DNA of 64,000 nt, from the sequence record NC_019500.1; one strand, given 5' to 3'. Origin of the DNA: Escherichia phage Bp7. The position numbers and the translations under genes are program-made. Shown here piece by piece: positions 592 through 58,052 of the stretch. The notes under the pieces are model-generated. The model had not been told where the DNA came from, made no database searches, and worked only from the letters and a program-made list of their open reading frames with translations. The stretch's first letter is position 1. The number at the start of each line of letters is the position of its first letter.

Positions 592-1308
592 TTATTGAGG
601 CTTCATTTTACAGTTATCGAAATGCCAACGATTCATATTACCGGAATTCCCTTGTTTACCACAATGAGGGCATTCTACCTTCTTTTCTGATTTTTTGCGC
701 CCGTTAGGATTTTTCTTACAAAAAACTTTATGAGCCGCAATAACACAGGATTTTCCTGAAAGGCCGCAGAATTCACATTCCACAATTTTATAGACCATGT
801 TTTCTAGGCCTTTCTTTATTTTTAATTTTTGCTCCTCAGATATAGAGCGGTCCACTTTATTAGGGCCTTTAGGGCAGTTATCGAAATGCCATCTGTTCAT
901 ATTGCCTACCAATCCAGTTTTACCGCAGTGTGGACAGGTAACTCTAGGCTTTTTTAAAGCGGAAATTGACATTTTCTTTCTGGTTTCTTCCGAGAATTCT
1001 TTATCCTTTTGGACTTCTGAATTCTTACGACGAAGCCATCCAAATAATTTATTTTTAGACCTATCAGCTTTTGGTGAGCTAACTGTCATCATTCTTGCTG
1101 CATAGACTAACGATGCATTATCTGGATGGATTTTAACTAACAACTGATGAGCCAAGTAATGTTCTTCAGGTGTTAAGTCTACCAAGTTTAAAGCGTCGTC
1201 CGTTCCACCCATGCATTGTGGTATAATGTGATGACGTTCTTTATAGGTAGTTAAATTTCTATTAACTGCTCGTTGAATAAGCTTTTCGTATATTGATTTA
1301 TAATTCAT
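592..1308 (-). CDS. HNH homing endonuclease (Mob-like) with repeated C-terminal CPHCGK...NMNRWHFDNC zinc-finger-like motifs
   Basis: ORF track 592..1314 begins on TTG; the first ATG is at 1308 behind an AAGGA RBS; HHIIPQCMGG motif; inserted between 46 and 45.2. Confidence 0.65.
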   Translation of the reverse strand: MNYKSIYEKLIQRAVNRNLTTYKERHHIIPQCMGGTDDALNLVDLTPEEHYLAHQLLVKIHPDNASLVYAARMMTVSSPKADRSKNKLFGWLRRKNSEVQKDKEFSEETRKKMSISALKKPRVTCPHCGKTGLVGNMNRWHFDNCPKGPNKVDRSISEEQKLKIKKGLENMVYKIVECEFCGLSGKSCVIAAHKVFCKKNPNGRKKSEKKVECPHCGKQGNSGNMNRWHFDNCKMKPQ

Positions 1309-1344: not shown

Positions 1345-1352
1345 TATTTATA
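1345..1352 (-). promoter_or_regulatory. T4-type late promoter (TATAAATA) upstream of the minus-strand HNH gene
   Basis: Reverse complement of tatttata at 1345-1352, about 35 nt upstream of the ATG at 1308. Confidence 0.35.
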
Positions 1353-2048: not shown

Positions 2049-2747
2049 ATGAAATTCTCTAAAGAAACTCTGAACATTCTGAAAAACTTCTCCGGTATTA
2101 ACCCAGGTATCATGCTTAAACCTGGTAACACTATTCTAACTCGTTCAGTAACGGGTGCAAGTTATGGTGAAGCTACTGTAAATGACACCTTTGATATCGA
2201 AGCCGCAATCTACGACCTGAACGGCTTCTTAAGTATTCTGTCATTGGTATCTGATAGTGCTGAAGTTTCGGTAAGTGAAGACCAAACCACCTTAATTATT
2301 AAAGACCAACGTTCAACTATTAAATGGCCTATTGCCGACCCAAGTACAATTGCATTCCCAAGCAAAGCTATTCCATTCCCGGTGGCTGAAGTTATTTTCG
2401 ACCTTAAAGCCGAAGATTACCAACAGTTGATGCGTGTGTCCTCTGGATTGAGTATTGATACATTTGCTATCACTGTAGACAACGGTAAAATTGTAATCAA
2501 TGGCTACAAACAAGTTGATGATAAGGACCTGGCACGTCCATTGTATTCCTTAGTGGTTGCAGACCATGATGGTCCTGAATTCAAATTCATTATCAACAAA
2601 ACTAATATGAAAATGATGCCTGCCGATTACCATGTATTGTTATGGGCTCGTGGTGAAGGTCAGGACGCTCGTTTCGCAGCCAAGTTTGAAGGTTCACAAG
2701 CTTCTTATGTATTGGCTATGGAAGCAGGCTCAAGCCACTCGTTCTAA
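2049..2747 (+). CDS. 45: gp45 sliding clamp
   Basis: 232-aa ORF alignable along its length with T4 gp45 (T4 is 228 aa). Confidence 0.9.
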   Translation: MKFSKETLNILKNFSGINPGIMLKPGNTILTRSVTGASYGEATVNDTFDIEAAIYDLNGFLSILSLVSDSAEVSVSEDQTTLIIKDQRSTIKWPIADPSTIAFPSKAIPFPVAEVIFDLKAEDYQQLMRVSSGLSIDTFAITVDNGKIVINGYKQVDDKDLARPLYSLVVADHDGPEFKFIINKTNMKMMPADYHVLLWARGEGQDARFAAKFEGSQASYVLAMEAGSSHSF

Positions 2748-3325
2748 TGTATATATGTTATCATAATACGATAACCAACACTAAAACCAAGTGTGTCTAT
2801 CATTATTTTGGTAGACACCGTGTTACTGCTGAAGAATACTACGGTACAGGTAAGTTTGTTAAGAAATGCAAACGAGAAAATGCTATTACTCCAGGTCTTT
2901 GGGAGTTTTGTGTTGAAGTTATCCATACAGTGGATACGTTTAAAGAAGCCAAGATTATTGAAGAAGAGCTTGTTAAAGAAGGCATATCAAAATATGGTAT
3001 CCTTTGTGTTAATAAGAATCCTGGTGGTGATGGCGGTGTGGATTACCACACCGAAGAATCTAAACGTAAAATGTCAGAAACTAGAACAGGAAAATCAAGA
3101 ATATTTTCCGAAAGTCATAAAGAAAATTTAAGTAAACGAGCCAGAAAATACTCTGATGTTTGGTCCGAACCTGTATATTCAAATCTTAAAACCATTTGGC
3201 TGGAAACAGGTATGTTAAAACGCGGACGGTTTAGTACGCTTTTACAAAAATATGGGTATAATTATTCTGCGAATGAATTGAATAAAATTGTTAAACATTT
3301 TAATGAGGAAAATAATAATGAGTAA
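2747..3325 (+). CDS. GIY-YIG homing endonuclease (Seg-like) with NUMOD3-type repeats
   Basis: N-terminal YICYHNTITNTKTKCVYHYFG; repeats SKRKMSETRTGK and SHKENLSKRARK; start overlaps the gp45 stop (TAATG); inserted between 45 and 44. Confidence 0.55.
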   Translation: MYICYHNTITNTKTKCVYHYFGRHRVTAEEYYGTGKFVKKCKRENAITPGLWEFCVEVIHTVDTFKEAKIIEEELVKEGISKYGILCVNKNPGGDGGVDYHTEESKRKMSETRTGKSRIFSESHKENLSKRARKYSDVWSEPVYSNLKTIWLETGMLKRGRFSTLLQKYGYNYSANELNKIVKHFNEENNNE

Positions 3326-4295
3326 AGTAGTAAATGGTTTAACTATTAATGAAAACGACTTCATGTGGGAACAGAAATATCGTCCAGGTACTTTATCTGA
3401 GTGTATTCTGCCAGCGCATGATAAAGAAACCCTCCAAGCCATTGTTAATAAGGGTCTAATCCCTAACATTATCCTAGTCTCTGCTTCACCAGGCACAGGT
3501 AAAACTACCGTAGCTAAAGCATTGTGTGCTGATACAAATTCAGATATGCTTTTTGTTAACGGTTCCGACTGCCGTATTGATTTCGTTCGTAATGAACTTA
3601 CTCGTTTTGCATCTTCCAAATCTATCGAAGGTAAACGTAAGGTAATTGTTATCGACGAATTCGACCGCGCCGGTGTTGCTGAAGCTCAACGTCACCTTCG
3701 TTCGTTCTTAGAAGCCTATTCCTCAAACTGTTCTGTAATTATTACAGCAAACAATATTGATGGTATTATCGGTCCACTTCAATCCCGTTGTCGTGTTATT
3801 AAATTTGGTGAAGCCACTCCGGCCGACCAAACAACCATGATGAAAGAAATGATTCATCGTGCTGTAGCAATCTGTAAAAACGAAAATATCGAAGTCGAAG
3901 ACCTTAAAGTTATTGCTGCCTTAGTTAAACAAAACTTTCCTGACTTCCGTAAAACAGTTAACCAACTGGACCGTTACTCATCCAGTGGTAAAATCGATAC
4001 AGGCATTTTGAGTATTGTAATGAATACCAATTCGCCTATCGATGAAGTAGTGGCTGCACTTAAAGATAAAAACTTTAAAGAACTCCGTGCATTAGCTCCA
4101 CGTCATGTCAACGATTATTCCAACTTTATTATGTCGCTGGCTAACGAACTCTATGGTAAATTGCCTGGGCCAAGCATTGTTAGAATGTACGAAATTGTCG
4201 GTGAAAATAACCAATACCACGGTATTGCGGCTAACCCAGAAATTCACATGACTTATCTGTTCATCCAACTTGCTCTGGAGCTCCAATGGCTATAA
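3318..4295 (+). CDS. 44: gp44 clamp-loader large subunit (AAA+)
   Basis: Walker A SPGTGKTT, VIVIDEFDR, SRC motif; matches T4 gp44; ATG at 3318 after a GAGGAAA RBS. Confidence 0.9.
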   Translation: MSKVVNGLTINENDFMWEQKYRPGTLSECILPAHDKETLQAIVNKGLIPNIILVSASPGTGKTTVAKALCADTNSDMLFVNGSDCRIDFVRNELTRFASSKSIEGKRKVIVIDEFDRAGVAEAQRHLRSFLEAYSSNCSVIITANNIDGIIGPLQSRCRVIKFGEATPADQTTMMKEMIHRAVAICKNENIEVEDLKVIAALVKQNFPDFRKTVNQLDRYSSSGKIDTGILSIVMNTNSPIDEVVAALKDKNFKELRALAPRHVNDYSNFIMSLANELYGKLPGPSIVRMYEIVGENNQYHGIAANPEIHMTYLFIQLALELQWL

Positions 4296-4858
4296 GTCTT
4301 TTTGATGATGACGTTGAACTGAACGAACATGAAGTTGCTTGGAAATCACGTAACGACGCTGCAATTCAAGCCTTGGCCGATTCATTTAAAGAAAAGGCTG
4401 AAAACGAACTGTTCGCCATTATGAACGATATCACATATGGTAAAAACCAACGTAACTTGGCTCAATCGGAAAACTACAATCAATTTTGGCTCGATAATAG
4501 TTTGAGCCAACATGTGGATTGCATTATGCAAGCTGCAATGGTTAACTGTCTGAAACTTGATGACCAAAGTCATTTCAACTATCTTTTACATGCTGTTCCT
4601 AAGGGTAAGAGATTTGGTAAATGGGCTAAGGCCCATGATGATGAAGTTAGTGTAGTTTTTATTACTCGTTTATTGATGAAATACCATTCAATTAATAATG
4701 ATGACGCTTATCGTTATCTCGAGACTTATAAAATTAAAGGCCATCTTCCGGCGGTGCTTAAGAAGATGAAAGGGTTGGTTACTGACGAGTTCCTGAAATC
4801 CGTAACCAAAAATGTTAAAGAACAAAAAGACTTGAAAAAGAAAGCATTGGAATGGTAA
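4286..4858 (+). CDS. 62: gp62 clamp-loader small subunit
   Basis: 190 aa; MAISLFDDDVELNEHEVAW ... KNVKEQKDLKKKALEW resembles T4 gp62. Confidence 0.85.
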   Translation: MAISLFDDDVELNEHEVAWKSRNDAAIQALADSFKEKAENELFAIMNDITYGKNQRNLAQSENYNQFWLDNSLSQHVDCIMQAAMVNCLKLDDQSHFNYLLHAVPKGKRFGKWAKAHDDEVSVVFITRLLMKYHSINNDDAYRYLETYKIKGHLPAVLKKMKGLVTDEFLKSVTKNVKEQKDLKKKALEW

Positions 4859-17428: not shown

Positions 17429-17722
17429 ATGAAAAAGTTATTAATCGCAGCAATCCTTACAGTAGCATCATGTGGCACAGCTCCAGTTACGGCTGGATTG
17501 GATAAAGACCTGTGTGAATGGTCTATGACTGCAGACCAAGAATCAGTCGAACATCAGATTTATGCCGATATCATGAACATCACTAAACGCGACCGCCCTG
17601 ATATGGTTAAAGAAGTGTCAGACCAATTGGCTTCAAGCGGTGTTATGCAATATAACTATGTTTTGTATTGCGATGCCAATTTCGATAACAAAAATATCGT
17701 TAAAGAGGTGACAGGTGAATAA
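17429..17722 (+). CDS. sp: Spackle (Sp) periplasmic superinfection-exclusion protein
   Basis: 97 aa; signal/lipobox MKKLLIAAILTVASC; DKDLCEWSMTADQ and QYNYVLYCD resemble T4 Sp. Confidence 0.6.
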   Translation: MKKLLIAAILTVASCGTAPVTAGLDKDLCEWSMTADQESVEHQIYADIMNITKRDRPDMVKEVSDQLASSGVMQYNYVLYCDANFDNKNIVKEVTGE

Positions 17723-18155
17723 GATTAACAGAAATTTAGTTATCAAAAAACTTCGTTGTAAAAATCCAAATGCACAAGCATACAGGATGTTTTGGAGCGA
17801 CGACCACCAGTACCTAGGTTATTTTCTTGTTGATAGTGATAATATAATTACGTTTGCTCATAAACTTCTTAACAAAGAATTAAACCATTGGCAAGAACTT
17901 ATTGCAGTGAGGTCTAAATTGTTTTCACGTAATGCAATGCACCAATTGGTTTATTTTTTCGCTGAAGGTATTCCTGACAAGGTCGAGTTTGATGGATTCG
18001 AATTTAAAGATATCCTCCCGGACAACGAATTGAACGACTGCATTAATATAGATGTCCCTAGCAAGTATATCAAAAATAGCCTGTTGAAAATTCTGGAAGC
18101 CCCAGTTTATTCAATTGACGACCAGATTTTTAATGCCTTTATGAATCGAGGTTAA
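17715..18155 (+). CDS. hypothetical protein (61.2 position)
   Basis: 146-aa ORF; GTG start overlapping the sp stop. Confidence 0.35.
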   Translation: MNKINRNLVIKKLRCKNPNAQAYRMFWSDDHQYLGYFLVDSDNIITFAHKLLNKELNHWQELIAVRSKLFSRNAMHQLVYFFAEGIPDKVEFDGFEFKDILPDNELNDCINIDVPSKYIKNSLLKILEAPVYSIDDQIFNAFMNRG

Positions 18156-18156
18156 T

Positions 18157-18348
18157 ATGAGTGCAATGTGTACGGGCTCTAAGATTTCTGTATTCGAATT
18201 ATTCGAAGAGTATGAAATCGTATCAAAGGACCAAGAAGCTATCCATATTATTGCCGGTGATGGTGTGACTTGGATTATCCCACTGTATCATGAAGATACC
18301 TATGAAGTCACTGATGCGAATGGTGATAAAGCTATTTTCGTAATATAA
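18157..18348 (+). CDS. hypothetical protein
   Basis: 63-aa ORF. Confidence 0.3.
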   Translation: MSAMCTGSKISVFELFEEYEIVSKDQEAIHIIAGDGVTWIIPLYHEDTYEVTDANGDKAIFVI

Positions 18349-18364
18349 ATAAGGCCAGGAGCCT

Positions 18365-18564: not shown

Positions 18565-19593
18565 ATGTCATATGTCGATAAAGAATTTGCTGTACGTGCC
18601 TTGAATTACCAACCTAAATTCAGACAAGTAACTGGTAGTGATTTTAAATTAAACTGTCGTTGTCGTGTATGCGGTGACTCTCAAAAAGATGAGAACAAAG
18701 CTCGTTTTTGGGCCTATCCGGCTAATGACGGCTCTGTAATGCTGCACTGTTTTAACTGTGACTATTCAGCAGGAATTAAGAAGTATCTATACGAATACGA
18801 GCCTGATTTATATCGCGAATATATTCTTGAGAAACATAAAGAGCAATCGTTCGGGAGACAAGCTGCACCTAAGGTGGAGATATCTGAAAAAATTAAAGCT
18901 AAGATGCCTGTCATCGAAAAGCTTAATTTCTGTGAACGATTAGATAGGATGCCGAAGGACCATCCTATTATCAAATATGTGACGTTACGTTGCATTCCTG
19001 AAAACAAATGGAACCGGCTGTGGTTTACTAAAGAATGGCCTGCATTAGTTAACTCTGTGAATCCAGGGACCTATTCTAAAGAAATGCCTGAGCCTCGTTT
19101 GGTTATTCCAATTTTCAATAAGAATAAACAAATTGAAAGTTTTCAGGGTCGAGCCTTACGTAAAGATGCTCCACAAAAATATATTACAATAAAAGCTCAC
19201 GACCAAGCTACAAAAATATATGGAATGGATACAGTTGACGAACGTCAGTTGGTGTGGGTAATGGAAGGCCCTATTGACTCTTTGTTTGTTCCGAATGCAA
19301 TAGCAATTACTGGCGGGTCGTTGGACTTGGCTATGGTTCCGTGCAAAGAAACTAGGGTTTGGGCCCTTGATAGCGAAAGCCGCCACCCAGATACTATTTC
19401 AAGAATGAAAAAGCTTATCGAGGCTGGTGAAAAAGTAGTGTTTTGGGATAAGGTCCCTTGGCCTTCTAAAGATATTAACGATATGATTAGAAAAGACGGG
19501 GCGTCGCCGGAAGCAATACTAGAATATATGAAAAGTAATTACAGTCAAGGATTAATGGCTAAATTGAGATTACAACGGTATGCTAAAATATGA
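18565..19593 (+). CDS. 61: gp61 DNA primase
   Basis: 342 aa; zinc ribbon CRCRVCGD...CFNC; FQGRALRKDAPQKYITI resembles T4 gp61. Confidence 0.9.
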   Translation: MSYVDKEFAVRALNYQPKFRQVTGSDFKLNCRCRVCGDSQKDENKARFWAYPANDGSVMLHCFNCDYSAGIKKYLYEYEPDLYREYILEKHKEQSFGRQAAPKVEISEKIKAKMPVIEKLNFCERLDRMPKDHPIIKYVTLRCIPENKWNRLWFTKEWPALVNSVNPGTYSKEMPEPRLVIPIFNKNKQIESFQGRALRKDAPQKYITIKAHDQATKIYGMDTVDERQLVWVMEGPIDSLFVPNAIAITGGSLDLAMVPCKETRVWALDSESRHPDTISRMKKLIEAGEKVVFWDKVPWPSKDINDMIRKDGASPEAILEYMKSNYSQGLMAKLRLQRYAKI

Positions 19594-20345
19594 ATTATAA
19601 TAAAATTTATGACGATTTGGTTAATAGGGCCCTTGAAAGGGGTCTTATTAAAGAAAATTTAAAATACTATACAGAATCTCATCATATTATACCTGAATGT
19701 ATAGGTGGGCCTGATATAGATTCAAACAAAGTATTATTTACGGCAAGAGAGCATTTTATAGCTCACATATTATTGTATAAGATTTATAAGTTGCCTAAAT
19801 TAATATATGCTGTGCATATGATGTGCAATTCTAGTGAAAAGCACCAAAGAAATTCTAAGATGTATGACTGGCTTAGAAAGGACCATAAAGCAGCCTTAAG
19901 TAAGAAAATGACCGATGCTTGGAAAGCCCCTGAATTTAGGACCAAAATGGTGGCGGCCTTATACCAAAGGCACAAAGATAAGCCCGTCACAGAGGAGACT
20001 AGGGAAAAACAGTCTAATTCTCTAAAGAGGTATTATAAAGAAAATCCTATCTCTGAAGAAGCAAAAAAGAAAAATTCAGAAGCCCAAAAACAAAGGTTTA
20101 AAGATAGGCCTCAAACAGAAGAAACAAAAAGATTAAGGAAGGACTCATGCAGAAAAACCCAAGGCACCCCTATATGGTTATGTAATTCGAATGGGGTAGG
20201 AATAGAAAAGTTTTCTTCTGCGGCAGAAGCTAAAGAAATCTTAGGATTGTCCGGGCACACCCAAAATATATACACCGCTTGTAAGCGAAACAAAGAAACC
20301 GGGAGATTGTATAAATCCTCCGGTTTAATTTGGAAATATCAATAA
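19590..20345 (+). CDS. HNH homing endonuclease (Mob-like), paralogous to the 592-1308 gene
   Basis: HHIIPECIGGPD; N-terminus MNYNKIYDDLVNRALERG parallels MNYKSIYEKLIQRAVNR; AT-rich with AGA/AGG/ATA codons; start overlaps the gp61 stop (ATGA). Confidence 0.7.
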   Translation: MNYNKIYDDLVNRALERGLIKENLKYYTESHHIIPECIGGPDIDSNKVLFTAREHFIAHILLYKIYKLPKLIYAVHMMCNSSEKHQRNSKMYDWLRKDHKAALSKKMTDAWKAPEFRTKMVAALYQRHKDKPVTEETREKQSNSLKRYYKENPISEEAKKKNSEAQKQRFKDRPQTEETKRLRKDSCRKTQGTPIWLCNSNGVGIEKFSSAAEAKEILGLSGHTQNIYTACKRNKETGRLYKSSGLIWKYQ

Positions 20346-20351
20346 TGGCAT

Positions 20352-20552
20352 TTAAACCTGCATACCTGTAAAGAATCCAATGATGCTCAACACGTGTTCC
20401 ATAGTAACCGCAGGGAGAGTAATACCCTGACTAGCCGCAACAGGTACAACTAAAAGATTCCATAGGAACACATCTAAAGCAAGGAAGCCCATCATGAGCT
20501 TTTTATCTTTCTTGCTGGTTAATTTCCAAATTTGGTAAAATATACTACCCAT
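20352..20552 (-). CDS. small membrane protein with a late promoter (minus strand)
   Basis: 66 aa with two hydrophobic segments; GGAGGA RBS; reverse-complement TATAAATA upstream. Confidence 0.4.
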   Translation of the reverse strand: MGSIFYQIWKLTSKKDKKLMMGFLALDVFLWNLLVVPVAASQGITLPAVTMEHVLSIIGFFTGMQV

Positions 20553-20573
20553 GTTATCCTCCTGTTAAATTAA

Positions 20574-20581
20574 TATTTATA
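20574..20581 (-). promoter_or_regulatory. T4-type late promoter TATAAATA
   Basis: tatttata on the plus strand, about 22 nt upstream of the minus-strand ATG at 20552. Confidence 0.4.
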
Positions 20582-20584
20582 GCT

Positions 20585-20608
20585 TGCTTTACAAATTAAT
20601 GATATAAT
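20585..20608 (+). promoter_or_regulatory. MotA-dependent middle promoter
   Basis: TGCTTTA at 20585-20591, 11-bp spacer, TATAAT at 20603-20608; upstream of gene 56. Confidence 0.45.
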
Positions 20609-20651
20609 TATCTAACTTATTACCTAATATGAATCGAAAAGGAAAAATATA

Positions 20652-21167
20652 ATGGCTCATTTTAACGAATGTAGTGGTTTGATTGCAGGTGTTGATAAAG
20701 CTGAGGAAGCTTATGTTAGTGCAATTACCAAAGGTATCGACCCACTGCAGGTTATGCTTGATATGCAGAAATCTTTACAGGTTCGTCTGGCTAATGACCG
20801 TGATTATTGTTACCACCCGGATAAACTGGCTACTGCAGGTGATGTTGTTGGATGGATGCGCGAACAGAAAGACTGCATCGATGATGAATTCCGTGAACTT
20901 CTGACTTCACTTGGTGAAATGTCTAAAGGTGAGAAAGATGCTTCTGCCGTCTGGAAAAAATGGAAGGCACGTTACCCAGAAGCTCAGTCTAAACGTATTG
21001 ATGAAATGAGCCCTGAAGACCAGTTGGAAATTAAATTTGAACTTGTGGACATAATCCATTTCGTATTAAACATGGTTACAGGTCTTGGTATGACTTCTGA
21101 AGAATTGTTCAAACTTTATTATCTGAAAAATCTTGAAAATTTCAAACGTCAGGACAATGGGTATTAA
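20652..21167 (+). CDS. 56: gp56 dCTPase (dCTP/dCDP pyrophosphatase)
   Basis: 171 aa; MAHFNECSG...VMLDMQKSLQVRLAND...CIDDEFRELLTSLGEMS resembles T4 gp56. Confidence 0.6.
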   Translation: MAHFNECSGLIAGVDKAEEAYVSAITKGIDPLQVMLDMQKSLQVRLANDRDYCYHPDKLATAGDVVGWMREQKDCIDDEFRELLTSLGEMSKGEKDASAVWKKWKARYPEAQSKRIDEMSPEDQLEIKFELVDIIHFVLNMVTGLGMTSEELFKLYYLKNLENFKRQDNGY

Positions 21168-21170
21168 TCA

Positions 21171-21178
21171 GTATAAAT
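21171..21178 (+). promoter_or_regulatory. T4-type late promoter TATAAATA upstream of soc
   Basis: gTATAAATAc about 33 nt upstream of the soc ATG. Confidence 0.45.
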
Positions 21179-21210
21179 ACACCTGTAATTAAACAACAAA
21201 GGAGTTAATT

Positions 21211-21444
21211 ATGGGTGGTTTCGTTAATATCAAAACCTTTACGCATCCGGCTGGTGAAGGTAAAGAAGTTAAAGGTGTTGAAGTATCTGTTCCGTTTGAA
21301 ATCTATTCAAACGAGCATCGTATTGCGAATGCACACTATCAGACATTTCCTTCTGAAAAGGCGGCATACACTACTGTAGTAACTGATGCAGCCGATTGGC
21401 GAACTAAGAACGCGGCGATGTTTACGCCTACCCCAGTAGTTTAA
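21211..21444 (+). CDS. soc: Soc small outer capsid protein
   Basis: 77 aa; VNIKTF...AHYQTFPSEKAAYTTV resembles T4 Soc. Confidence 0.6.
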   Translation: MGGFVNIKTFTHPAGEGKEVKGVEVSVPFEIYSNEHRIANAHYQTFPSEKAAYTTVVTDAADWRTKNAAMFTPTPVV

Positions 21445-21449
21445 TTATA

Positions 21450-21477
21450 AGGAACCTTCGGGTTCCTTTTTTGGTTT
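21450..21477 (+). terminator. intrinsic terminator with UUCG tetraloop
   Basis: aggaaccTTCGggttcc followed by ttttttggtttt. Confidence 0.6.
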
Positions 21478-21482
21478 TAAGG

Positions 21483-21512
21483 GTTTACTTTCTAGGAAGG
21501 CCGTGTTAAGAT
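21483..21512 (+). promoter_or_regulatory. early promoter cassette
   Basis: gtttac, 18 bp, tgtTAAGAT, then gaggag RBS. Confidence 0.4.
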
Positions 21513-21538
21513 GGTCTTATCTTATAGAGGAGAACACT

Positions 21539-21736
21539 ATGTTAAATCGTTGGATTAAACCTAATAATGCAGTAGGTGCTTTGATTGCTCAAGAAGTTTC
21601 GCTTAAATACGGGTTAGGGTATCATGACGATGTTATTACGCATTCTTTTATGATGTATGAAGATAATTCTGTAGAATTTAATGCAGAAATCCGCTTAGAC
21701 AATGGCGATGTAAAATTTGTGAGAGGTTTCCTATGA
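21539..21736 (+). CDS. hypothetical protein
   Basis: ORF starting MLNRWIKPNN after a GAGGAG RBS. Confidence 0.3.
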   Translation: MLNRWIKPNNAVGALIAQEVSLKYGLGYHDDVITHSFMMYEDNSVEFNAEIRLDNGDVKFVRGFL

Positions 21737-22062
21737 TTCAGTGGCTTAAGAATTTATTCAAAATTACCCCAGGCGAAGGTCCGGTTCCTATTAGTCCATC
21801 AGACGTTAAGTTAAGGGAATATGTTTACGTGGGCGATGGTATGATGGAAGAAGTTATCAGGCAACCTGAAAAAGCTGGTAATGTGGGGCCAGGCGCTCTT
21901 CCTTTGAATTCTAAAAAGTTTAAAGAACATCTAGAAGCTCGTCGCACGAGCCATATTGATACCACTCCTATTATGGTTGCGGCGGCTGTTAGTTCATGGA
22001 CCGGTGATTCGTCTTATTCTGACTCAGGAAGCTGTGGCTCATCGTCCAGCTCGTGTGATTAA
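21733..22062 (+). CDS. hypothetical protein
   Basis: 109-aa ORF, overlapping start. Confidence 0.3.
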   Translation: MIQWLKNLFKITPGEGPVPISPSDVKLREYVYVGDGMMEEVIRQPEKAGNVGPGALPLNSKKFKEHLEARRTSHIDTTPIMVAAAVSSWTGDSSYSDSGSCGSSSSSCD

Positions 22063-23144: not shown

Positions 23145-23714
23145 ATGAACATCGAACAAAAATGTCTTTATCAAGACCGAATCAATTCCAAATTCTCAAA
23201 ACACGAACAGAATCTTTTAGAAAAATGTCTGGATGCTAAAAAAGACCCTAACTTCCATTACGACCTTGACAAACTGGTTCGCAAGCATGTTACTTCAGCG
23301 GTTCCAGTAGAGTTGTATCGTGGGATTACCACCAGAGAACTTGAGCAATTAGAGCTCCTTTCAGTAGGGTGTCAATGGTCTCCTGGTCGAGTTACTTCTT
23401 TTAGTACACAATACTCTCAGGCTCGTCAGTTCGCAGGGGCGTGGGAATATGGAACCAAAACCATTTTAAGTCTCAGGAATGCACCGTTCATTTTCGACTA
23501 CTACAACCATGCTATAGACCTTGTTCTTGCAGGGAATGTAGACGCCCTTGAAATTGATGAAACTCGTATTGACCTCTATGATATGGTCGAAACTGAATGT
23601 GAGTTCATGGTCTCTAGCCAATCGCGATTTGAGATTGTTGCAATCGAAACCGTCAAAAGAGACCCGTATGAAATCGAGTACAAAACAATTCATTTAAAAA
23701 TGTTGGATTTTTAG
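23145..23714 (+). CDS. ADP-ribosyltransferase, ModA/ModB family (R-S-E type)
   Basis: LYRG, SFSTQ and ECEF motifs. Confidence 0.55.
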   Translation: MNIEQKCLYQDRINSKFSKHEQNLLEKCLDAKKDPNFHYDLDKLVRKHVTSAVPVELYRGITTRELEQLELLSVGCQWSPGRVTSFSTQYSQARQFAGAWEYGTKTILSLRNAPFIFDYYNHAIDLVLAGNVDALEIDETRIDLYDMVETECEFMVSSQSRFEIVAIETVKRDPYEIEYKTIHLKMLDF

Positions 23715-23743
23715 TTTACAAGCAAGGATGCTTGTGGTACTAT
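23714..23743 (+). promoter_or_regulatory. early promoter cassette
   Basis: gtttac, 18 bp, TACTAT, ctttctatcaact, gaggag. Confidence 0.4.
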
Positions 23744-23768
23744 CTTTCTATCAACTGAGGAGAATAAT

Positions 23769-24383
23769 ATGTTATATCCAAGCCACCGATTATCAGAGTT
23801 CTATGACAATGTTAAGTGTGATGATTTCCGTGAAAACATCCAGTGCGAAATCAACCAGCAGTATTCTGATTTAGAACAGAGTACCCTCTGGCAGTGCATG
23901 GAAAATAAACCAGATTGTATCCAGGAAACTCTGAACAAAATTATTCGTAAGAACCTGACTTCTGTAGTGCCTGATAAGCTCTATCGAGGCATATCTAAAA
24001 AGACTATGAAGTATCTAGAGTCCACAATGTGTGTAGGTGCGGTAATTGAATTCGACCGCGTGATGAGCTTCTCTAAAGACTTCAACGTGGCAAGGAATTT
24101 CGCGTCTTATAACTTCTACGGCACATTTAATATCTTTTGTATTAATGATGCACCATTTGTGTACAATTATCAGGAAGAAATCTTTAAAATGTTATGTGCC
24201 GCGCCCCCTGAAGAGTTCCCAGGTGCATTTCCTGAATCTACCCGTGTAGCAAACTTACAATTAATCAATGATGAAGATGAGATGATGTTCCCTGCGGGAA
24301 CTACGCTGCGCGTAGACTCTATTGAGAGAAATCCTAAATGGAATAATTACACCATTTGGAATCTTTCCGTTCTTTCTTACTGA
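23769..24383 (+). CDS. ADP-ribosyltransferase, ModA/ModB family (R-S-E type), tandem paralogue
   Basis: LYRG, MSFSKDF and EDEMMF motifs. Confidence 0.55.
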   Translation: MLYPSHRLSEFYDNVKCDDFRENIQCEINQQYSDLEQSTLWQCMENKPDCIQETLNKIIRKNLTSVVPDKLYRGISKKTMKYLESTMCVGAVIEFDRVMSFSKDFNVARNFASYNFYGTFNIFCINDAPFVYNYQEEIFKMLCAAPPEEFPGAFPESTRVANLQLINDEDEMMFPAGTTLRVDSIERNPKWNNYTIWNLSVLSY

Positions 24384-30361: not shown

Positions 30362-31042
30362 ATGAAATATATAACATACTTAACAATATATGATGGAACA
30401 AAGCTACCTCCATTTTATATAGGCTCCACTTATTTGGATAAACACCTAGCTGGATATCATGGTTCGGTTACATCCAAAAAGTACGAAGACCTATATAATA
30501 AAGAGCTTGAGGAACACCCTGAATTATTTGATAGCATGATTTTGGGTGAATTTGAAACCAGAGAAGAAGCTACATTTTGTGAGCTTTATTACCAAAAACT
30601 TTATAACGTTGTTAAAAGTAATTTATTTTTCAATATGGCATATGCTACCGTTGACGGATGTTTTGGTATGGATGTTTGTAAAGAAAATAATCCATTTTGG
30701 AACCATAAACATTCTGAAAGTACATTAAAAGCCCAATCTGATGCTAAGATTGGAGAGCTTAATCCTATGTACGGGACTAAACGCCCTGAGCATTCTAAAG
30801 CAATGTCAAAAGAAAATAATCCTTTTTATGATAAGAAACACACCGAAGAAGGATTGGTTAAGTGTGGAATTAAAAATCGTAAAAGTCCGGTATGGGAATA
30901 TGAATCTGCTTTAGAAAAATTATGGTTAGAATTAGATAAACCTAAATTGGCTATGTTTATGCGAGAAAGTATTAAACGCGGTTTTCCTGAAGGTTCATAC
31001 AAAAATATTTTACGACAATTCGAGAGAAGACATAATGATTGA
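30362..31042 (+). CDS. GIY-YIG homing endonuclease (Seg-like) with NUMOD3 repeats
   Basis: FYIGSTYLDKHLAGYHGS; NPFWNHKHSESTLKAQSD, NPMYGTKRPEHSKAMS, NPFYDKKHTEEG. Confidence 0.6.
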   Translation: MKYITYLTIYDGTKLPPFYIGSTYLDKHLAGYHGSVTSKKYEDLYNKELEEHPELFDSMILGEFETREEATFCELYYQKLYNVVKSNLFFNMAYATVDGCFGMDVCKENNPFWNHKHSESTLKAQSDAKIGELNPMYGTKRPEHSKAMSKENNPFYDKKHTEEGLVKCGIKNRKSPVWEYESALEKLWLELDKPKLAMFMRESIKRGFPEGSYKNILRQFERRHND

Positions 31043-37084: not shown

Positions 37085-37385
37085 AATGATTAATTACCTG
37101 AATGTCGGTGAACGTGATATCAAGATTTCTAATTTGCGTGGATTCCATAAAGCAGGTACTGTTTATTGTGCTAAGCTCGTTAAACACCCGGGTGATGTTC
37201 ATTACGCTTTTCTAGAATGCGATGAGGTGGTCGAAGGCGAATTTCCTTTAGCAGATTCTGATACTTTAGAACCCGACGACCGAATTTATTACGGTGAACT
37301 TCATATTCGAGGCATTTATGGTGAAGACGAACCCGGGACTACTCCGATTGGCAGCGATGCCGACATTTACCCTGAAGACATCTGA
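37077..37385 (+). CDS. hypothetical protein
   Basis: 102-aa ORF. Confidence 0.3.
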   Translation: MSKMINYLNVGERDIKISNLRGFHKAGTVYCAKLVKHPGDVHYAFLECDEVVEGEFPLADSDTLEPDDRIYYGELHIRGIYGEDEPGTTPIGSDADIYPEDI

Positions 37386-37398
37386 TTTAACAGGTGAA

Positions 37399-37875
37399 AT
37401 GAAGGTTAAGATTAAGGATACCGTATTGTATTCCTTAAGCCAAGACCCGTCCCAAGATAAGAAAGAAGTATTGACTCGGTGTGTCATTGCAACGTATGCC
37501 GAGTACATGGTTGCTGATTGGTTGAAAGGATATGTTAACAGTGGTCTGGAAGACCATGACGACCCTTATACCTATGCATGGGATGTTTTAGCTCATCCTA
37601 TGTATTGTGGACTACGTGTAGAGGTCAAGACCCATCAGTCGGATTCTAAGTGGATTTCCTGCACTACAGGATACTCCGGTGACTTCCCTTATGGAACAGG
37701 GATTAACCTGGGGCCGCTCTTGAATCATAAAGTTGCAGATTGTATAATTATATTCGACACTTCGGTAAATGAGGCAGGCGATGTCCTGTTCACTCCTAAG
37801 TTCTCTGGTGACAGAGAAGCCATCACAAAGCTAGTCCGTAAGAGCAATTACAACGGCTGGTATCTCGCCTTATAA
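37399..37875 (+). CDS. hypothetical protein (denB position; not verified)
   Basis: 158-aa ORF from the ATG at 37399 inside ORF-track 37294..37875. Confidence 0.3.
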   Translation: MKVKIKDTVLYSLSQDPSQDKKEVLTRCVIATYAEYMVADWLKGYVNSGLEDHDDPYTYAWDVLAHPMYCGLRVEVKTHQSDSKWISCTTGYSGDFPYGTGINLGPLLNHKVADCIIIFDTSVNEAGDVLFTPKFSGDREAITKLVRKSNYNGWYLAL

Positions 37876-44203: not shown

Positions 44204-44479
44204 ATGACTAAAATTGAAATTGTTTCCGAAATTGCTACTATTGTTTCCATTTTGATTAAAACGGATTGTGAAGACATCATGCAACGTCGTGATGAGTTTA
44301 TTGCCTTTTTGAATGAGTTAGGTATTCGTAATGAACATGGAAAGGAACTTAATGGTTTGTCTTATAACAAATTATTTAAGTCATTAACTGAAGATGAACG
44401 TGATACTCTTATTGAGCAATTTAATGAAGGGTATGAAGATATACACCGCTATCTAATGATGTATACCTCCAATTTTTAA
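44204..44479 (+). CDS. asiA: AsiA anti-sigma70 factor
   Basis: 91 aa; EFIAFLNELGI...LIEQFNEGYEDIHRYLMMYT resembles T4 AsiA. Confidence 0.7.
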   Translation: MTKIEIVSEIATIVSILIKTDCEDIMQRRDEFIAFLNELGIRNEHGKELNGLSYNKLFKSLTEDERDTLIEQFNEGYEDIHRYLMMYTSNF

Positions 44480-45129
44480 CGAGTTCGACCTAATGTCCTC
44501 CCGGCTTGACCACACATAGACGAAAGTCTAGGAAATCCTAAATCCGGTTTGACATCGTACCAGTACAACGATATCGAGCCGGAGTAGACGTTATCCAAAT
44601 TAAAAAACGGGCACGAAAACATATACGTGAATTGTGTTTTCTTCTTTGTAGGAAGGAACACAGTTTCGGTACTTGATTCAAAATAGTTCCCGTTAACTCC
44701 CGCCATATATTCTATTGACGTTTTGTCAATTGGAAACCCTCCCGTGTTTTTTGCGTCTACCGTTTCCGGTAATTTACCCTCATAAGCCACCATATCCACA
44801 AAATAATTCATGTTGGTCGGCCTAAAAGAATATATTGCTGTGAAGTCTGCACCTGAAGAAGAATGCACTATTCGGAGCTGCTCGATAGCCGCAATTTTAA
44901 ATCTATTGTCCTGGTCTTGTCTAATCATTTCAGTATAAGAGGCATAAGTAGTCTCTTTATAAAAGTTTAGAATATACTCGCCTTTATACCAAACCAATGC
45001 CATAAAGAACAATAATATTACGACTAGGACCCGGGAAAAAACTACTTTCCCGGAAGAAGTATCTTTAAAAATTCTATCAAGAAGTCCAAAAAGTAGGTCT
45101 GATAATGAAAATCCTACTTTTGGTTCCAT
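44476..45129 (-). CDS. t: holin T
   Basis: 217 aa; SDLLFGLLDRIFKD, one N-terminal TM, FAVYSFRP-like and ICAQAARILGR-like motifs resembling T4 gpt. Confidence 0.85.
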   Translation of the reverse strand: MEPKVGFSLSDLLFGLLDRIFKDTSSGKVVFSRVLVVILLFFMALVWYKGEYILNFYKETTYASYTEMIRQDQDNRFKIAAIEQLRIVHSSSGADFTAIYSFRPTNMNYFVDMVAYEGKLPETVDAKNTGGFPIDKTSIEYMAGVNGNYFESSTETVFLPTKKKTQFTYMFSCPFFNLDNVYSGSISLYWYDVKPDLGFPRLSSMCGQAGRTLGRTR

Positions 45130-45157: not shown

Positions 45158-45949
45158 TTAATACTTTCGTATTATAACCAAGAGCCATAGATAGCGCCTG
45201 TAGCGCCCCACGTTGGAGACTTCCGAATACCGCTCTACCAGGAGCACCACCGCCAGATCTAGATAAGTGATTATCCCATCCTCTCCGCCCCGACCTCCAG
45301 CATCACCGCCATTGCCTCCGCCGAATTGGGAAGTGTAACCGGCACCACCCGGGGCGTCATAACTAGCATTACCACCCGGCCAATTAACGCCGCCTCCACC
45401 GATGCCAAATGGTCTACCACCACCGCCACCTGCTGTAGCATTTGGCGCCCAGCTATTCTGTAATGACACTGCACCACCACCGCCGCCGCCTGATGCAATA
45501 ACGCCATAGTTCCAAATACGAAGTCTTCCGCCGATATCATTTTGGATTACATCGCCGCCATTTGTGCCAGGGTTTCCGTTTACAGTACCGTTACCACCTC
45601 GTCCCCACATATGAACTCCACCATGAATATTCAAAGTAACATATTCGTTAGGGGTATCACCGTACATAAAGAACAATGGAACATCTTTAGTATATGATAC
45701 TAAGTTGCCTGTGATATTAAACACTATAGGAGCACCACCAGCTTCAAAACAACGGTCTCTAAACCACTGCCCGTTAAAGTTATGGTCTGCTCCGAGCGTG
45801 TGAATAATCTCACGAGACCGACCTGCAAATTGAGACATCCAAGATGGGTTACCAAGACGCAATTCTCTAGAAGCGGCCGTCATCCAACGTTGACCTGTTT
45901 CAGCCACTGCTGATGTTCCAATCCAACCAGGAATTCCTACTACTGCCAT
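45158..45949 (-). CDS. 38: gp38 receptor-recognising adhesin, T2-type with glycine-rich repeats
   Basis: 263 aa; multiple GGGGG tracts separated by short variable segments; immediately downstream of gene 37. Confidence 0.7.
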
Positions 45950-57420: not shown

Positions 57421-58052
57421 ATATAGTTTATAAAATGACTTGGCTTAATCGTCAGGCTAATAATATTAAGCCGTTTTCGTACATAGGTTCTAAAACTAAT
57501 TGTACTTTTGAAAATGGCGTGATTATTGACTGTAAAGGTAAAGAGTATTGGACCTCTTGCGAGCAATCAAGATTTAAAGAGGCCATCGAAGAAGAAAAAC
57601 CTATTGTTGAAATTTTGGCTATAACGCCATTTGATATTGTTATTAATATTGAACGTTCAGAACAATTGGAAGTTCAAGCTAGAGATAATGATGATTATTT
57701 TAATTTGGTTTATGCCGGTGGCGGATTTGGAGTCTTTGGATGCACTCACCCAGCCAAACGTCCTGAAGTTAGAGCCCATATGAAAGCTGCTAACTATATG
57801 AATCAACCCGATTACCGTCCTTGGAAAACTTCTAGAGCAAACCCTTTAGATTGGATGCTTAGTGATATTGCTTATACTAATTATTGTATAATTAATTCTA
57901 GTGGAAGAGCTTGTGGATGGAGGCGTCTCATTAACTCTGGTATAAATGTTAGTGAAACTACATCAAAGAGTATGATTAAACAATTTAATGAGGGTTGGGT
58001 TCCTAATGATGACCCTGAATTCATTAAGTTAAAAATGCTTTATTCGAAGTGA
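57417..58052 (+). CDS. possible GIY-YIG homing endonuclease, SegG-like by position (between 59 and 32)
   Basis: N-terminal IVYKMTWLNRQANNIKPFSYIGSKTN; TTG start overlapping the gp59 stop. Confidence 0.35.
   Translation: MNIVYKMTWLNRQANNIKPFSYIGSKTNCTFENGVIIDCKGKEYWTSCEQSRFKEAIEEEKPIVEILAITPFDIVINIERSEQLEVQARDNDDYFNLVYAGGGFGVFGCTHPAKRPEVRAHMKAANYMNQPDYRPWKTSRANPLDWMLSDIAYTNYCIINSSGRACGWRRLINSGINVSETTSKSMIKQFNEGWVPNDDPEFIKLKMLYSK

Follow-up and report, generated by a model that had tools for sequence, protein, structure and literature searches.

The window analysed here, a 64,000-nucleotide stretch of Escherichia phage Bp7 DNA, is that of a T4-like Dhakavirus. As shown in Table 1, the plus-strand open reading frame (ORF) that an earlier reading of the letters alone (the sequence-only reading) had placed behind gene 61 and called an HNH endonuclease gene is indeed there, and its product matches the annotated 'homing endonuclease' of Escherichia phage Bp7 (AEN93825.1) at 100% identity. 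The assignment to the HNH endonucleases held, on the strength of a match to PHROG 655 ('homing endonuclease') with an E value of 1.6e-52, HNH residues that are invariant in 58 homologues and matches of the family profile. When the T4 paralogues were compared by blastp, MobB was closest (40% identity over 168 aa, E 2e-40), followed by MobD (39%, E 2e-30), MobE (E 3e-29) and MobC (E 1e-13), and the homology to the Mob family includes the N-terminal MNY...HHIIP...N..LT..EH domain. The gene is a separate ORF with gene 61 on one side and a convergent ORF on the other, and because no Rfam family, group I and group II introns included, was found in the window, it is not intron-borne. All of its orthologues are intact (248–257 aa); dN/dS between those of phages RZ and P8 is 0.18, with dS saturated between lineages.

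Table 1. Features in and around the endonuclease gene (positions are those of the window).
Feature	Position	Strand	Basis
Gene 61 (DNA primase), chimeric	18565..19593	+	Annotation in relatives; weak Pfam DNAG_N match
Tract near-identical with phage PSD2002, ~1.95 kb	19294..21242		Mismatch boundaries
Imported gene 61 3' segment, linked to the endonuclease gene	19345..19587	+	Identity breakpoint
ATATGA, rebuilt last codon (Ile) and stop of gene 61	19588..19593	+	Junction comparison
Mob-type HNH homing endonuclease gene, free-standing, 251 aa	19590..20345	+	Sequence comparison
HNH catalytic domain, aa 1–88	19590..19853	+	Conserved residues, AF2 model, family profile
Five-helix A/K/E-rich linker with NUMOD3-like repeats, aa ~90–191	19857..20162	+	AF2 helices, sub-threshold Pfam NUMOD3
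C-terminal NUMOD1-like DNA-binding module (putative), aa ~193–251	20166..20342	+	Sub-threshold Pfam, alignment
Vestigial ATTTAA, former last codon and stop of gene 61	20349..20354		Colinearity with empty sites
Convergent 66-aa ORF, phrog_2024	20352..20552	-	PHROG 2024, E 5e-28
T4-type late promoter motif TATAAATA	20574..20581	-	22 nt upstream of the ATG of the convergent ORF
Gene 56 (dCTPase/dUTPase), imported allele	20652..21167	+	Pfam dUTPase_2, E 7e-7

The start codon of the endonuclease gene overlaps the stop codon of gene 61 by 4 nt (ATGA, 19590–19593), as the sequence-only reading had stated. The junction, AAAATATGAATTA, is identical in the window and in phages PSD2002, RZ, P8 and MHG19, and in the metagenomic locus L017 it reads ATATAAttATG, with a 2-nt gap in place of the overlap; phages with an empty site have AAAAT/GTTTAG there. 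The gene lies in a 761-nt cassette (19588–20348), whose insertion point is precisely the final codon plus stop of gene 61. At its right end, the vestigial ATTTAA is colinear with ATTTAG followed by GCAGG in the empty sites (fDHCT2, WG01, JS98 and L024) and with a remnant 3' of the gene in L017, marks the end of the insert and supplies the stop of the convergent ORF (TTA in the complement). The cassette rebuilds the Ile-stop of the primase as ATA TGA, from which the ATG of the endonuclease arises, so that the gene is without a Shine-Dalgarno sequence of its own; low-level translation would probably proceed by termination-reinitiation coupled to gene 61. An RNA hairpin at the start codon was unconvincing as a translational regulator (z -2.1), and promoter and terminator scans gave counts at chance, with no plus-strand terminator inside the endonuclease gene.

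The sequence-only reading had named gene 61 as the upstream and gene 56 as the downstream neighbour, and both are on the plus strand; however, gene 56 is not adjacent, because the convergent ORF intervenes. In relatives, the latter is annotated as a 'hypothetical protein' and its stop overlaps the primase stop; its product here has 86% aa identity to that of WG01 and 85% to that of L017. Other matches to the late promoter motif lie upstream of soc, holin t, gene 61.1 and another endonuclease gene, and the count is not above chance (7 found versus 6.65 expected). The interval 61-56-soc is a hot spot: AnYang and T4 have segF in the gap from gene 56 to soc, another HNH gene is found upstream of gene 56 in IME08, and MX01 and T4 have dam in the interval.

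Domain architecture and known endonucleases

The order of domains in the endonuclease appears to be HNH, NUMOD3-like helices and NUMOD1-like tail. The HNH domain follows the pattern MNY...Y27-x-E29-x-H31-H32-I-x-P35...G40...N46...E54-H55...H59, in which Y27, E29, H31, H32, P35, G40, N46, H55 and H59 are invariant in the 58 homologues and E54 is conserved in at least 90% of them; the H-N-H arrangement is thus present as H31-H32, N46 and H55/H59. Residue 50 is F in the Bp7 protein and L in at least 90% of homologues. In the AF2 model, strands at residues 29–32 and 47–50 are followed by a helix at 52–66 (pLDDT 95–98), forming a predicted beta-beta-alpha core (pLDDT >95). The family profile matched solved HNH structures, namely the HNH domain of McrA (E 2.6e-5, aligning E-HH-I-P...GG...N-V-L...H) as well as those of a group II intron maturase and Cas8-HNH, whereas the single protein had no phmmer match among PDB sequences. 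The curated Pfam HNH model (PF01844), which some homologues carry, scored below its gathering cut-off (14.4–14.8 bits versus 21.4; E 0.03–0.04), which reflects the sensitivity limit of that model for the Mob subfamily.

The linker is predicted to form helices at residues 90–112, 114–130, 135–151, 156–172 and 177–191 and contains the repeats VTEETREKQS, ISEEAKKKNS and QTEETKRLRK, of the xTEETKxK type; it also has the top A over T skew of the window. Pfam NUMOD3 matched it below the cut-off (E 0.064), PF07460 being present in most homologues and PF07453 or PF22083 in some. The tail, which ends in the family motif WKY, matched Pfam NUMOD1, again below the cut-off (E 0.054), and aligns with the NUMOD1-bearing homologue P0060 and with similar tails. 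Model confidence in the tail is low (pLDDT 48–74), and the two sub-threshold matches fall in the expected order, NUMOD3 then NUMOD1.

In T4, mobE overlaps the stop of nrdA, and its product nicks the neighbouring nrdB and co-converts the flanks (Wilson & Edgell 2009, PMC2790892; PMC2988022). MobE and the Bp7 protein share the N-terminal HNH segment MNYxKIY...ExHHIIPxCxGGxDxxxNLVxLTAREH (40% identity, E 3e-29), and mobE is likewise free-standing and rich in AGR and ATA codons. As in Bp7, its start and the stop of the essential gene before it overlap (UAAUGA for mobE, AUGA for the Bp7 gene), an arrangement that suggests coupled translation (PMC2988022), and it is also absent from close relatives, the flanks of the conserved neighbour gene being co-converted (PMC2790892). 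In contrast, MobE has just 141 aa and is without the long NUMOD3-like linker and the NUMOD1-like tail; mobE lies in the nrd cluster between nrdA and nrdB and targets nrdB, whereas the Bp7 gene lies behind the primase gene; mobE has an internal terminator, whereas none was found on the plus strand of the Bp7 gene; and the strand-specific nick of MobE was mapped in vivo (PMC2790892), whereas nicking by the Bp7 protein is predicted.

MobB (264 aa) and MobD (259 aa) resemble the Bp7 protein in length, low GC and AGR/ATA-rich codons, but their genes occupy other sites (after a-gt and after nrdC.11, respectively), and the similarity stops at about residue 170, so that the C-terminal DNA-binding parts differ. 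To our knowledge, neither has been characterised biochemically. I-HmuI of Bacillus phage SPO1 (PDB 1U3E) is an HNH nicking endonuclease encoded in an intron, unlike the free-standing Bp7 gene, and it had no phmmer sequence match to the Bp7 protein, with a structural match too weak to be informative. SegF and SegG of T4, also free-standing, share the lifestyle, namely homing without an intron and co-conversion that starts from a cleavage site in a neighbouring gene, and segF shares the neighbourhood, being flanked by gene 56 and soc in T4 and AnYang; their catalytic fold, however, is GIY-YIG, unrelated in sequence to the Bp7 protein. As cited in PMC2790892, Liu et al. (2003) described localised marker exclusion by SegF and SegG and co-conversion of up to ~2 kb.

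The shared tract and the empty sites

Most Dhakaviruses have an empty site at this position. Among 463 phage records matching a 4-kb query, PSD2002 alone covers at least 80% of it; the Dhakavirus carriers are Bp7 (the window), PSD2002 and L028, whereas fDHCT2, JS98, WG01, MX01, AnYang and others are without the gene, and in the empty sites of the first four of these the primase stop overlaps the convergent ORF. Orthologues with 55–60% aa identity occupy the same site in three further lineages, namely Gaprivervirus (RZ, P8 and DK-13), Yersinia phage MHG19 and the metagenomic L017, and those of RZ, P8 and MHG19 keep the ATGA overlap. Gapriverviruses are mostly without the gene (VR20, SP18 and others), and L024, a relative of L017, has an empty site, so that presence or absence at one precise site is polymorphic among closely related genomes. 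The phage collection searched contained no close relatives of MHG19 without the gene, and a scan of IMG/VR for relatives returned three distant loci only. Among 5.8 billion proteins, relatives with >50% identity were found only in T4-like phages, beside gene 61.

The window and PSD2002 differ by 4 substitutions (19835, 19883, 20582 and 20635) across a tract bounded by mismatches at 19293 and 21243 (99.8% identity), whereas the flanks outside it are 94.8–96.9% (left) and 88.2% (right) identical, in backbones of 88–97%. Within the tract, genomes without the gene share just 60–80% identity with the window. Comparison with WG01 puts the left recombination junction at 19341–19354, and comparison with PSD2002 puts it after 19293; Dhakaviruses without the gene have 87–100% identity up to 19344 and 60–68% beyond. 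The first 259 codons of gene 61 are native Dhakavirus (99–100% aa identity to JS98 and WG01; 100% to JS98), and the last 83 are an imported allele (65–66% to JS98/WG01 and 75% to L017), which makes the primase of the window a chimera. The product of gene 56 (GC 0.397) has 92% aa identity to that of L017 versus 73–74% to those of JS98/WG01, and the region of this gene has 52–94% nucleotide identity per 50-nt bin to Dhakaviruses without the endonuclease gene.

The same 3' allele of gene 61 is found in PSD2002 (100%) and L028 (94–97%), and L028, a third backbone, shares the endonuclease gene and this allele but has a different right flank. Between RZ and VR20/SP18, and between L017 and L024, the divergence is confined to the last 125–250 nt of gene 61. 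Divergent flanks linked to the gene, with sharp breakpoints, were thus found in three lineage pairs, a historical footprint of co-conversion and not an observed cross. A single tract takes in the final ~250 nt of gene 61, the endonuclease gene with the convergent ORF, and gene 56 in full; it came from a T4-like phage that has not been sampled, the nearest relative among those sampled being L017. Except for PSD2002, nothing in the phage collection was closer to the flanks than 77–82%, and the donor itself is absent from the databases searched.

The sequence-only reading had found the composition consistent with a recent horizontal acquisition. The acquisition is supported, albeit on other grounds: because most relatives have an empty site and the 1.95-kb tract is 99.8% identical in backbones of 88–97%, these comparisons argue that another T4-like phage recently donated the endonuclease gene along with ~1.2 kb of adjoining sequence.

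Codon usage and rival explanations

The sequence-only reading had also described the gene as visibly more AT-rich than its neighbours, odd in its codons and compositionally foreign. The codon usage is odd: among the 60 window ORFs of at least 100 aa, the gene ranks second in deviance (synonymous-codon z -5.75), with AGA and AGG making up 15 of its 16 Arg codons versus 92 of 690 (13%) in non-endonuclease ORFs (p = 3e-12), ATA 9 of its 16 Ile codons versus 92 of 1058 (9%; p = 3e-6) and GGG 4 of its 10 Gly codons versus 63 of 1062; the example string that had been quoted lies at ~20130–20161. The AT-richness stands in part, as overall GC is lower but modestly so (0.353 versus a gene mean of 0.394, sd 0.030, z -1.35; fifth lowest of the 60 ORFs and at the 3.7th percentile of 756-nt sliding windows), whereas silent GC3 does not differ (0.337 versus 0.339, z -0.04). 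The deficit lies wholly in codon position 1 (GC1 0.369, z -2.8), because of AGR and TTR codon choice and 13.5% lysine, and the most unusual compositional trait is an A over T skew of 0.231, the highest in the window. AGR/ATA-rich codons are common to the four other endonuclease genes of the window, to T4 mobB–E and to the orthologues of three other phage lineages, which have a GC of 0.36–0.37 while their neighbour genes have 0.38–0.43; the AGR excess is larger here than in the other window endonuclease genes (p = 8e-4). To infer from this that the gene is foreign is unsound, given that silent-site composition matches the genome, the co-imported flanks (the 3' end of gene 61 and gene 56) are ordinary for phage DNA and the bias is common to long-resident, long-separated orthologues. 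AGR/ATA-rich, A-rich usage is, on these comparisons, an intrinsic trait of the gene class and not the mark of a foreign donor; because it is class-wide, it cannot date the acquisition, and deviant codons in such genes are useless for dating or sourcing a transfer.

We therefore consider it improbable that the gene came recently from a donor with another base composition and codon usage. The synonymous-codon z, the AGR and ATA counts, a GC in the lowest 4% of windows and the AGR excess over the other window endonuclease genes all fit such a donor, but it would have to have the GC3 of this genome and to share its codon bias with T4 mobB–E, the four other endonuclease genes and orthologues with saturated dS; moreover, the DNA transferred with it is made up of T4-like core genes, whose composition is normal, and the relatives with >50% identity are all T4-like phages. 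Still harder to credit is a gene ancestral to the Dhakaviruses, inherited vertically and deleted in most of them. Occupation of the identical site in four lineages makes an old association with gene 61 certain, and L024 might descend from an L017-like genome by loss of the gene; however, the flanks of the gene are 20–40% divergent from every Dhakavirus without it while the rest of the region is 90–100% identical, a pattern that deletion would not create. Neither would deletion fit a tract that is 99.8% identical across backbones differing by 3–12%, nor empty sites so precise that the stops of the primase and the convergent ORF still overlap.

Unlikely, though less so than either of these, is that the gene is a passenger, or a now inactive or re-purposed nuclease, in a tract moved by ordinary recombination or by a neighbouring endonuclease, in which case the protein might serve mainly to exclude competing phages, or might home no longer. 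The 61-56-soc interval hosts a SegF-type and a second Mob-type gene in relatives, but the interval of the window contains no SegF-type gene. T4 itself has a defective mobA and I-TevIII, and the Bp7 protein has F at residue 50, where L is usual, yet the catalytic residues have all been kept, and every lineage has a full-length ORF that is under purifying selection. Homologous recombination of the usual kind during co-infection could in principle also have produced the imported tract, the endonuclease gene being carried along; against this, the unit that stays linked in three Dhakavirus backbones and in Gaprivervirus is the gene with the 3' end of gene 61, and not gene 56. The explanation that we consider, taken as a whole, to be probable is that the ORF is real and constitutes an intact T4 Mob-type gene for a free-standing HNH homing endonuclease. 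By its sequence it is an ordinary selfish homing endonuclease, and it is already annotated as such in Bp7 and PSD2002.

Proposed homing and its target

By analogy with MobE, SegG, SegF and I-HmuI, we infer the following homing mechanism. In a mixed infection, the protein would bind a long, asymmetric site in a genome without the gene, using the NUMOD3-like helices and the NUMOD1-like tail, and the HNH domain would then nick or cut. Recombinational repair from the carrier genome would copy the cassette and flanking DNA into the broken genome. The target would most probably be the last ~125 nt of gene 61 or the junction of gene 61 with the convergent ORF, and for the junction we propose AAAATTTAG followed by GCAGG as the candidate.

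We rejected the conserved Toprim motif DNEPRHPD of gp61 (~19387–19410) as a cleavage site with immunising substitutions. All four carrier lineages have S or A at position 2 of this motif, but so do 18 of 102 gp61 clusters, so that the substitution is not specific, and the four such variants checked (P0123, P0144, P0148 and P0157/L024) were all without the gene. In addition, L024, which has no gene, is nucleotide-identical to the carrier L017 through the motif, and the two diverge only ~127 nt before the stop. What survives is that, in the genomes compared, the last ~125 nt of gene 61 always travels with the endonuclease gene.

The locus provides a clean natural case of an endonuclease gene at the boundary of a recombination tract inside an essential gene. 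Its practical weight is small, as the gene behaves as T4 biology predicts. We further suggest, tentatively and at somewhat less than even confidence, that endonucleases of this 251-aa type, 55–60% identical among four phage lineages, form a Mob sub-lineage that has specialised, in several genera of Tevenvirinae, on the 3'-terminal codons of the primase gene, with a cassette that duplicates the Ile-stop, recodes it into a start codon and leaves a vestigial stop in use by the convergent late gene, and that this sub-lineage has repeatedly swapped the C-terminal ~40–85 residues of the essential primase, and sometimes the whole dCTPase gene, between genera. If characterised, the enzyme would join the small group of Mob enzymes whose sites are known, as one that targets the primase, and if the suggestion is true, the sub-lineage drives intragenic chimerism in the replisome.

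The gene 61-proximal endonuclease gene

The 4-kb neighborhood of the 251-aa ORF directly after primase gene 61 matched T4-like coliphages of the genus Dhakavirus (JS98 group), with Escherichia phage PSD2002 as the top match (95% identity). As read from the ORFs and the annotation of relatives, the local gene order is sp, small ORFs, 61.1, gene 61, the flagged ORF, a convergent 66-aa ORF, gene 56, and soc (see table). The ORF, its coordinates, a string quoted from it, and its ATGA start/stop overlap with gene 61 were all as the sequence-only reading had described them. The encoded protein and 'homing endonuclease [Escherichia phage Bp7]' (AEN93825.1 / YP_007004149.1) share 100% identity, and the gene already carries the GenBank label 'homing endonuclease'; we found no published account of an endonuclease at the stop codon of gene 61. 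The feature is genuine but ordinary.

The protein matched PHROG 655 'homing endonuclease' (E 1.6e-52), and Pfam HNH, NUMOD3, and NUMOD1 follow one another along it, each under its curated threshold. In alignments of 38 and 58 homologues, Y27, E29, H31, H32, P35, G40, N46, H55, and H59 were invariant and E54 was conserved at least 90%. When the family profile was compared with solved structures, it hit the HNH motifs in McrA (E 2.6e-5), in a group II intron maturase, and in Cas8-HNH. In the AlphaFold model (mean pLDDT 85), a beta-hairpin and helix at residues 29-66 (pLDDT above 95) are followed by five long helices at residues 90-191 and then by a less confident beta/alpha tail; global fold searches returned nothing informative. 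The closest T4 proteins are those of the Mob family of free-standing HNH endonucleases, of which it is a member by sequence: MobB (40% identity over 168 aa, E 2e-40), MobD (39%, E 2e-30), MobE (40%, E 3e-29), and MobC (E 1e-13). The gene is not intron-borne, because no Rfam family was found within the window, and its lifestyle matches that described for MobE, SegF, and SegG. It is an intact Mob-type HNH gene.

Features of the locus, of related loci, and of other endonuclease genes in the window
Feature	Position	Strand	Remarks
Gene 61 (primase)	18565-19593		between 61.1 and flagged ORF
Flagged ORF	19590-20345	+	between gene 61 and convergent ORF
Convergent 66-aa ORF	20352-20552	-	between flagged ORF and gene 56; phrog_2024
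Gene 56 (dCTPase)	20652-21167		before soc
Putative homing endonuclease gene	592-1308	-	PHROG 655, HNH, same family; 38% identical to flagged protein
Putative homing endonuclease gene	2747-3325	+	PHROG 314
Putative homing endonuclease gene	30362-31042	+	PHROGs 10820/314
Putative homing endonuclease gene	57435-58052	+	PHROG 7504; directly after gene 59 homologue
IME08 (L004)	2200-2856		second Mob-type HNH gene, unrelated site, overlaps start of gene 56
AnYang (L003)	3062-3757		segF between gene 56 and soc, as in T4
MX01 (L011)	3079-4418		dam and extra ORF between gene 61 and gene 56
T4 (L008)	3847-4626		dam between gene 61 and gene 56, segF between gene 56 and soc
L023 (metagenomic, T4-like, without endonuclease gene)	3513-3917		31-aa ORF and ~300 nt non-coding after gene 61
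L022 (metagenomic, T4-like, without endonuclease gene)	3509-4216		167-aa ORF after gene 61, no Pfam hit

Insertion at the gene 61 stop

Of 463 matching phage records, only that of PSD2002 spans 80% or more of the 4-kb query. At the empty sites of the Dhakaviruses fDHCT2, JS98, WG01, and MX01, the stop codons of the primase gene and the convergent ORF overlap directly (...AAR ATT TAG|GCAGG); the occupied site in the window reads ...AAA ATA TGA-(endonuclease gene)-TAA TGGC ATT TAA|ACCTG. From this comparison, the insert is therefore 19588-20348 (761 nt). It carries a recoded copy of the last primase codon and stop, with the endonuclease ATG inside that copy, and the original ATT TAR is retained at 20349-20354, still as the stop of the convergent ORF.

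Across 19294-21242, the window and PSD2002 differ at 4 positions; outside this tract they are 94.8-96.9% identical on the left and 88.2% on the right. Dhakaviruses without the gene match the window at 87-100% identity as far as 19344, at 60-68% over the final 249 nt of gene 61, and at 52-94% (per 50-nt bin) across the convergent ORF and gene 56, with identity back at 96-100% from 21196. Residues 1-259 of gp61 are 99-100% identical to JS98 and WG01 and the last 83 residues are 65-66% identical, so gp61 of the window is a chimera. The empty sites, the tract shared with PSD2002, and the chimeric gp61 thus support the recent acquisition that the sequence-only reading had proposed. Downstream of the imported tract, 21243-21900 is a mosaic region: between 21446 and about 21700 the window matches fDHCT2 at 100% identity, but over 21546-21700 it shares only 54-70% with PSD2002, JS98, and WG01, and the 3' half of soc (21250-21400) is variable in every comparison. 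These breakpoints mark additional recombination boundaries that have no connection with the flagged gene. At ~18150-18160, between ORFs 17715-18155 and 18157-18348, the window is without ~196 nt present in PSD2002, fDHCT2, and the metagenomic locus L028, where the relatives have an extra small ORF (73 aa, with an overlapping one of 63 aa).

Apart from PSD2002, no flank relative in the phage collection was above 77-82% identity, and a search of 5.8 billion proteins returned no endonuclease relative between 60% and 90% identity. The donor is thus unsampled, and the nearest pointer to it is the metagenomic locus L017 (endonuclease 60%, gp61 C terminus 75%, gp56 92% aa identity). L028, a third Dhakavirus backbone with the gene (~96% nt identity), has the same gene 61 3' allele and a different convergent-ORF and gene 56 allele; the endonuclease gene and the 3' end of gene 61 are therefore the constant linked unit.

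Orthologues at 55-60% aa identity directly follow gene 61 in the Gapriverviruses RZ, P8, and DK-13 and in Yersinia phage MHG19; the three checked for the ATGA overlap (RZ, P8, and MHG19) all have it, and a 2-nt gap replaces it in L017. The duplicated primase end in RZ is 18 nt long and forms the C terminus of the endonuclease itself (KYAKV-stop). Most Gapriverviruses have no orthologue. The divergence of RZ from two of these, VR20 and SP18, is 13-28% and confined to the final 250 nt of gene 61; immediately right of the gene, RZ is near-identical to them. Similarly, L017 and L024, a relative without the gene, are 97-99% identical across the 500 nt of gene 61 preceding its last ~127 nt and diverge from there to the stop. 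Overall, the alignments show that the gene was inserted precisely at the gene 61 stop, that its presence is polymorphic, and that linked flanks were exchanged.

Proposed mobility and neighboring elements

By analogy with T4 MobE (PMC2790892) and its family (reviewed in PMC2988022), the endonuclease would be transcribed from gene 61 promoters and translated by ribosomes that terminate at the gene 61 stop and then reinitiate; the overlap is similar to that of nrdA and mobE in T4, the endonuclease gene has no Shine-Dalgarno sequence, and upstream of 61.1 there is one TATAAATA late-promoter motif (18344-18351). During mixed infection, the enzyme would nick or cut the allele without the gene, and recombinational repair would then copy the cassette with flanks of variable length. 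Because the left flank is always exchanged (at least ~125 nt) and exchange on the right ranges from 0 to ~900 nt, we place the putative target, with slightly better than even confidence, within the terminal ~125 nt of gene 61 or at the gene 61/convergent ORF junction; it may instead lie in a more upstream part of gene 61, within the convergent ORF, or within gene 56. The conserved Toprim motif DNEPRHPD was tested as a cleavage target and rejected.

The convergent ORF is conserved in Dhakavirus, Gaprivervirus, and metagenomic relatives, and its product, judged by eye, may be a small hydrophobic membrane protein. It is preceded by a strong Shine-Dalgarno sequence and, 22 nt upstream, by a T4 late-promoter motif (20574-20581, minus strand). 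Late transcription initiated at this motif would proceed antisense into the endonuclease gene; at 20288-20275 (minus strand) there is a weak terminator-like hairpin. As an insertion hot spot, the gene 61-56-soc interval is of a known kind; in T4 it holds dam and segF. What follows gene 61 in L023 and L022 may be remnants or a different cargo carried at that site. Four further putative homing endonuclease genes lie in the window; that at 57435-58052 occupies the position of T4 segG, and the minus-strand gene at 592-1308 has a TATAAATA motif 37 nt upstream (1345-1352, minus strand).

Codon usage of the endonuclease gene class

Set against the window's 59 other ORFs of 100 aa or longer, the flagged ORF has a GC content of 0.353 (others' mean 0.394, sd 0.030; z -1.35, fifth lowest; 3.7th percentile of 756-nt windows) and a GC3 of 0.337 versus 0.339 (z -0.04), and its AT-richness is therefore modest. 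The deficit is confined entirely to first codon positions (GC1 0.369, z -2.8) and reflects AGR (AGA/AGG) and TTR codon choice together with 13.5% lysine. Synonymous codon usage, however, is strongly deviant (z -5.75, second of 60): AGR encodes 15/16 arginines, against 92/690 in non-endonuclease ORFs (p 3e-12) and 19/42 in the other four endonuclease genes, and ATA encodes 9/16 isoleucines, against 92/1058 (p 3e-6) and 15/47, respectively. The A over T skew reaches its window-wide maximum in this ORF (0.231). Thus, of the compositional claim in the sequence-only reading, the unusual codons held and the greater AT-richness was weak.

The same bias is found in same-site orthologues (AGR 12/16 in MHG19, 7/18 in RZ, 8/18 in P8, and 6/16 in L017; GC 0.36-0.37, with neighboring genes at 0.38-0.43), in a different HNH gene of IME08 and segF of AnYang, in T4 mobB-E (AGR 64-75%, ATA 33-54%, GC 0.28-0.35), and in the four other endonuclease genes of the window, all AT-rich (GC 0.33-0.37) and AGR/ATA-enriched. 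The orthologues are all intact (248-257 aa), synonymous sites are saturated between the gene of the window and every orthologue outside its own 90% cluster, and dN/dS is 0.18 between the close pair RZ and P8. Non-endonuclease codon-usage outliers also occur in the window, at 44476-45129 (-), 37318-37875 (+), 45158-45949 (-), and 23145-24383 (+); these are the genes for holin t (z -5.8), for a denB-like endonuclease IV (z -5.2), and for the gp38-type adhesin, which has the window's top GC content (0.496; z -4.1), together with two ModA/ModB-like ADP-ribosyltransferase genes. In this window, mobile genes cannot be recognized from deviant codon usage alone. Because the bias is shared across the gene class, composition was the wrong basis for recent acquisition: the codon bias is not a mark of foreign origin but an old trait of the endonuclease gene class.
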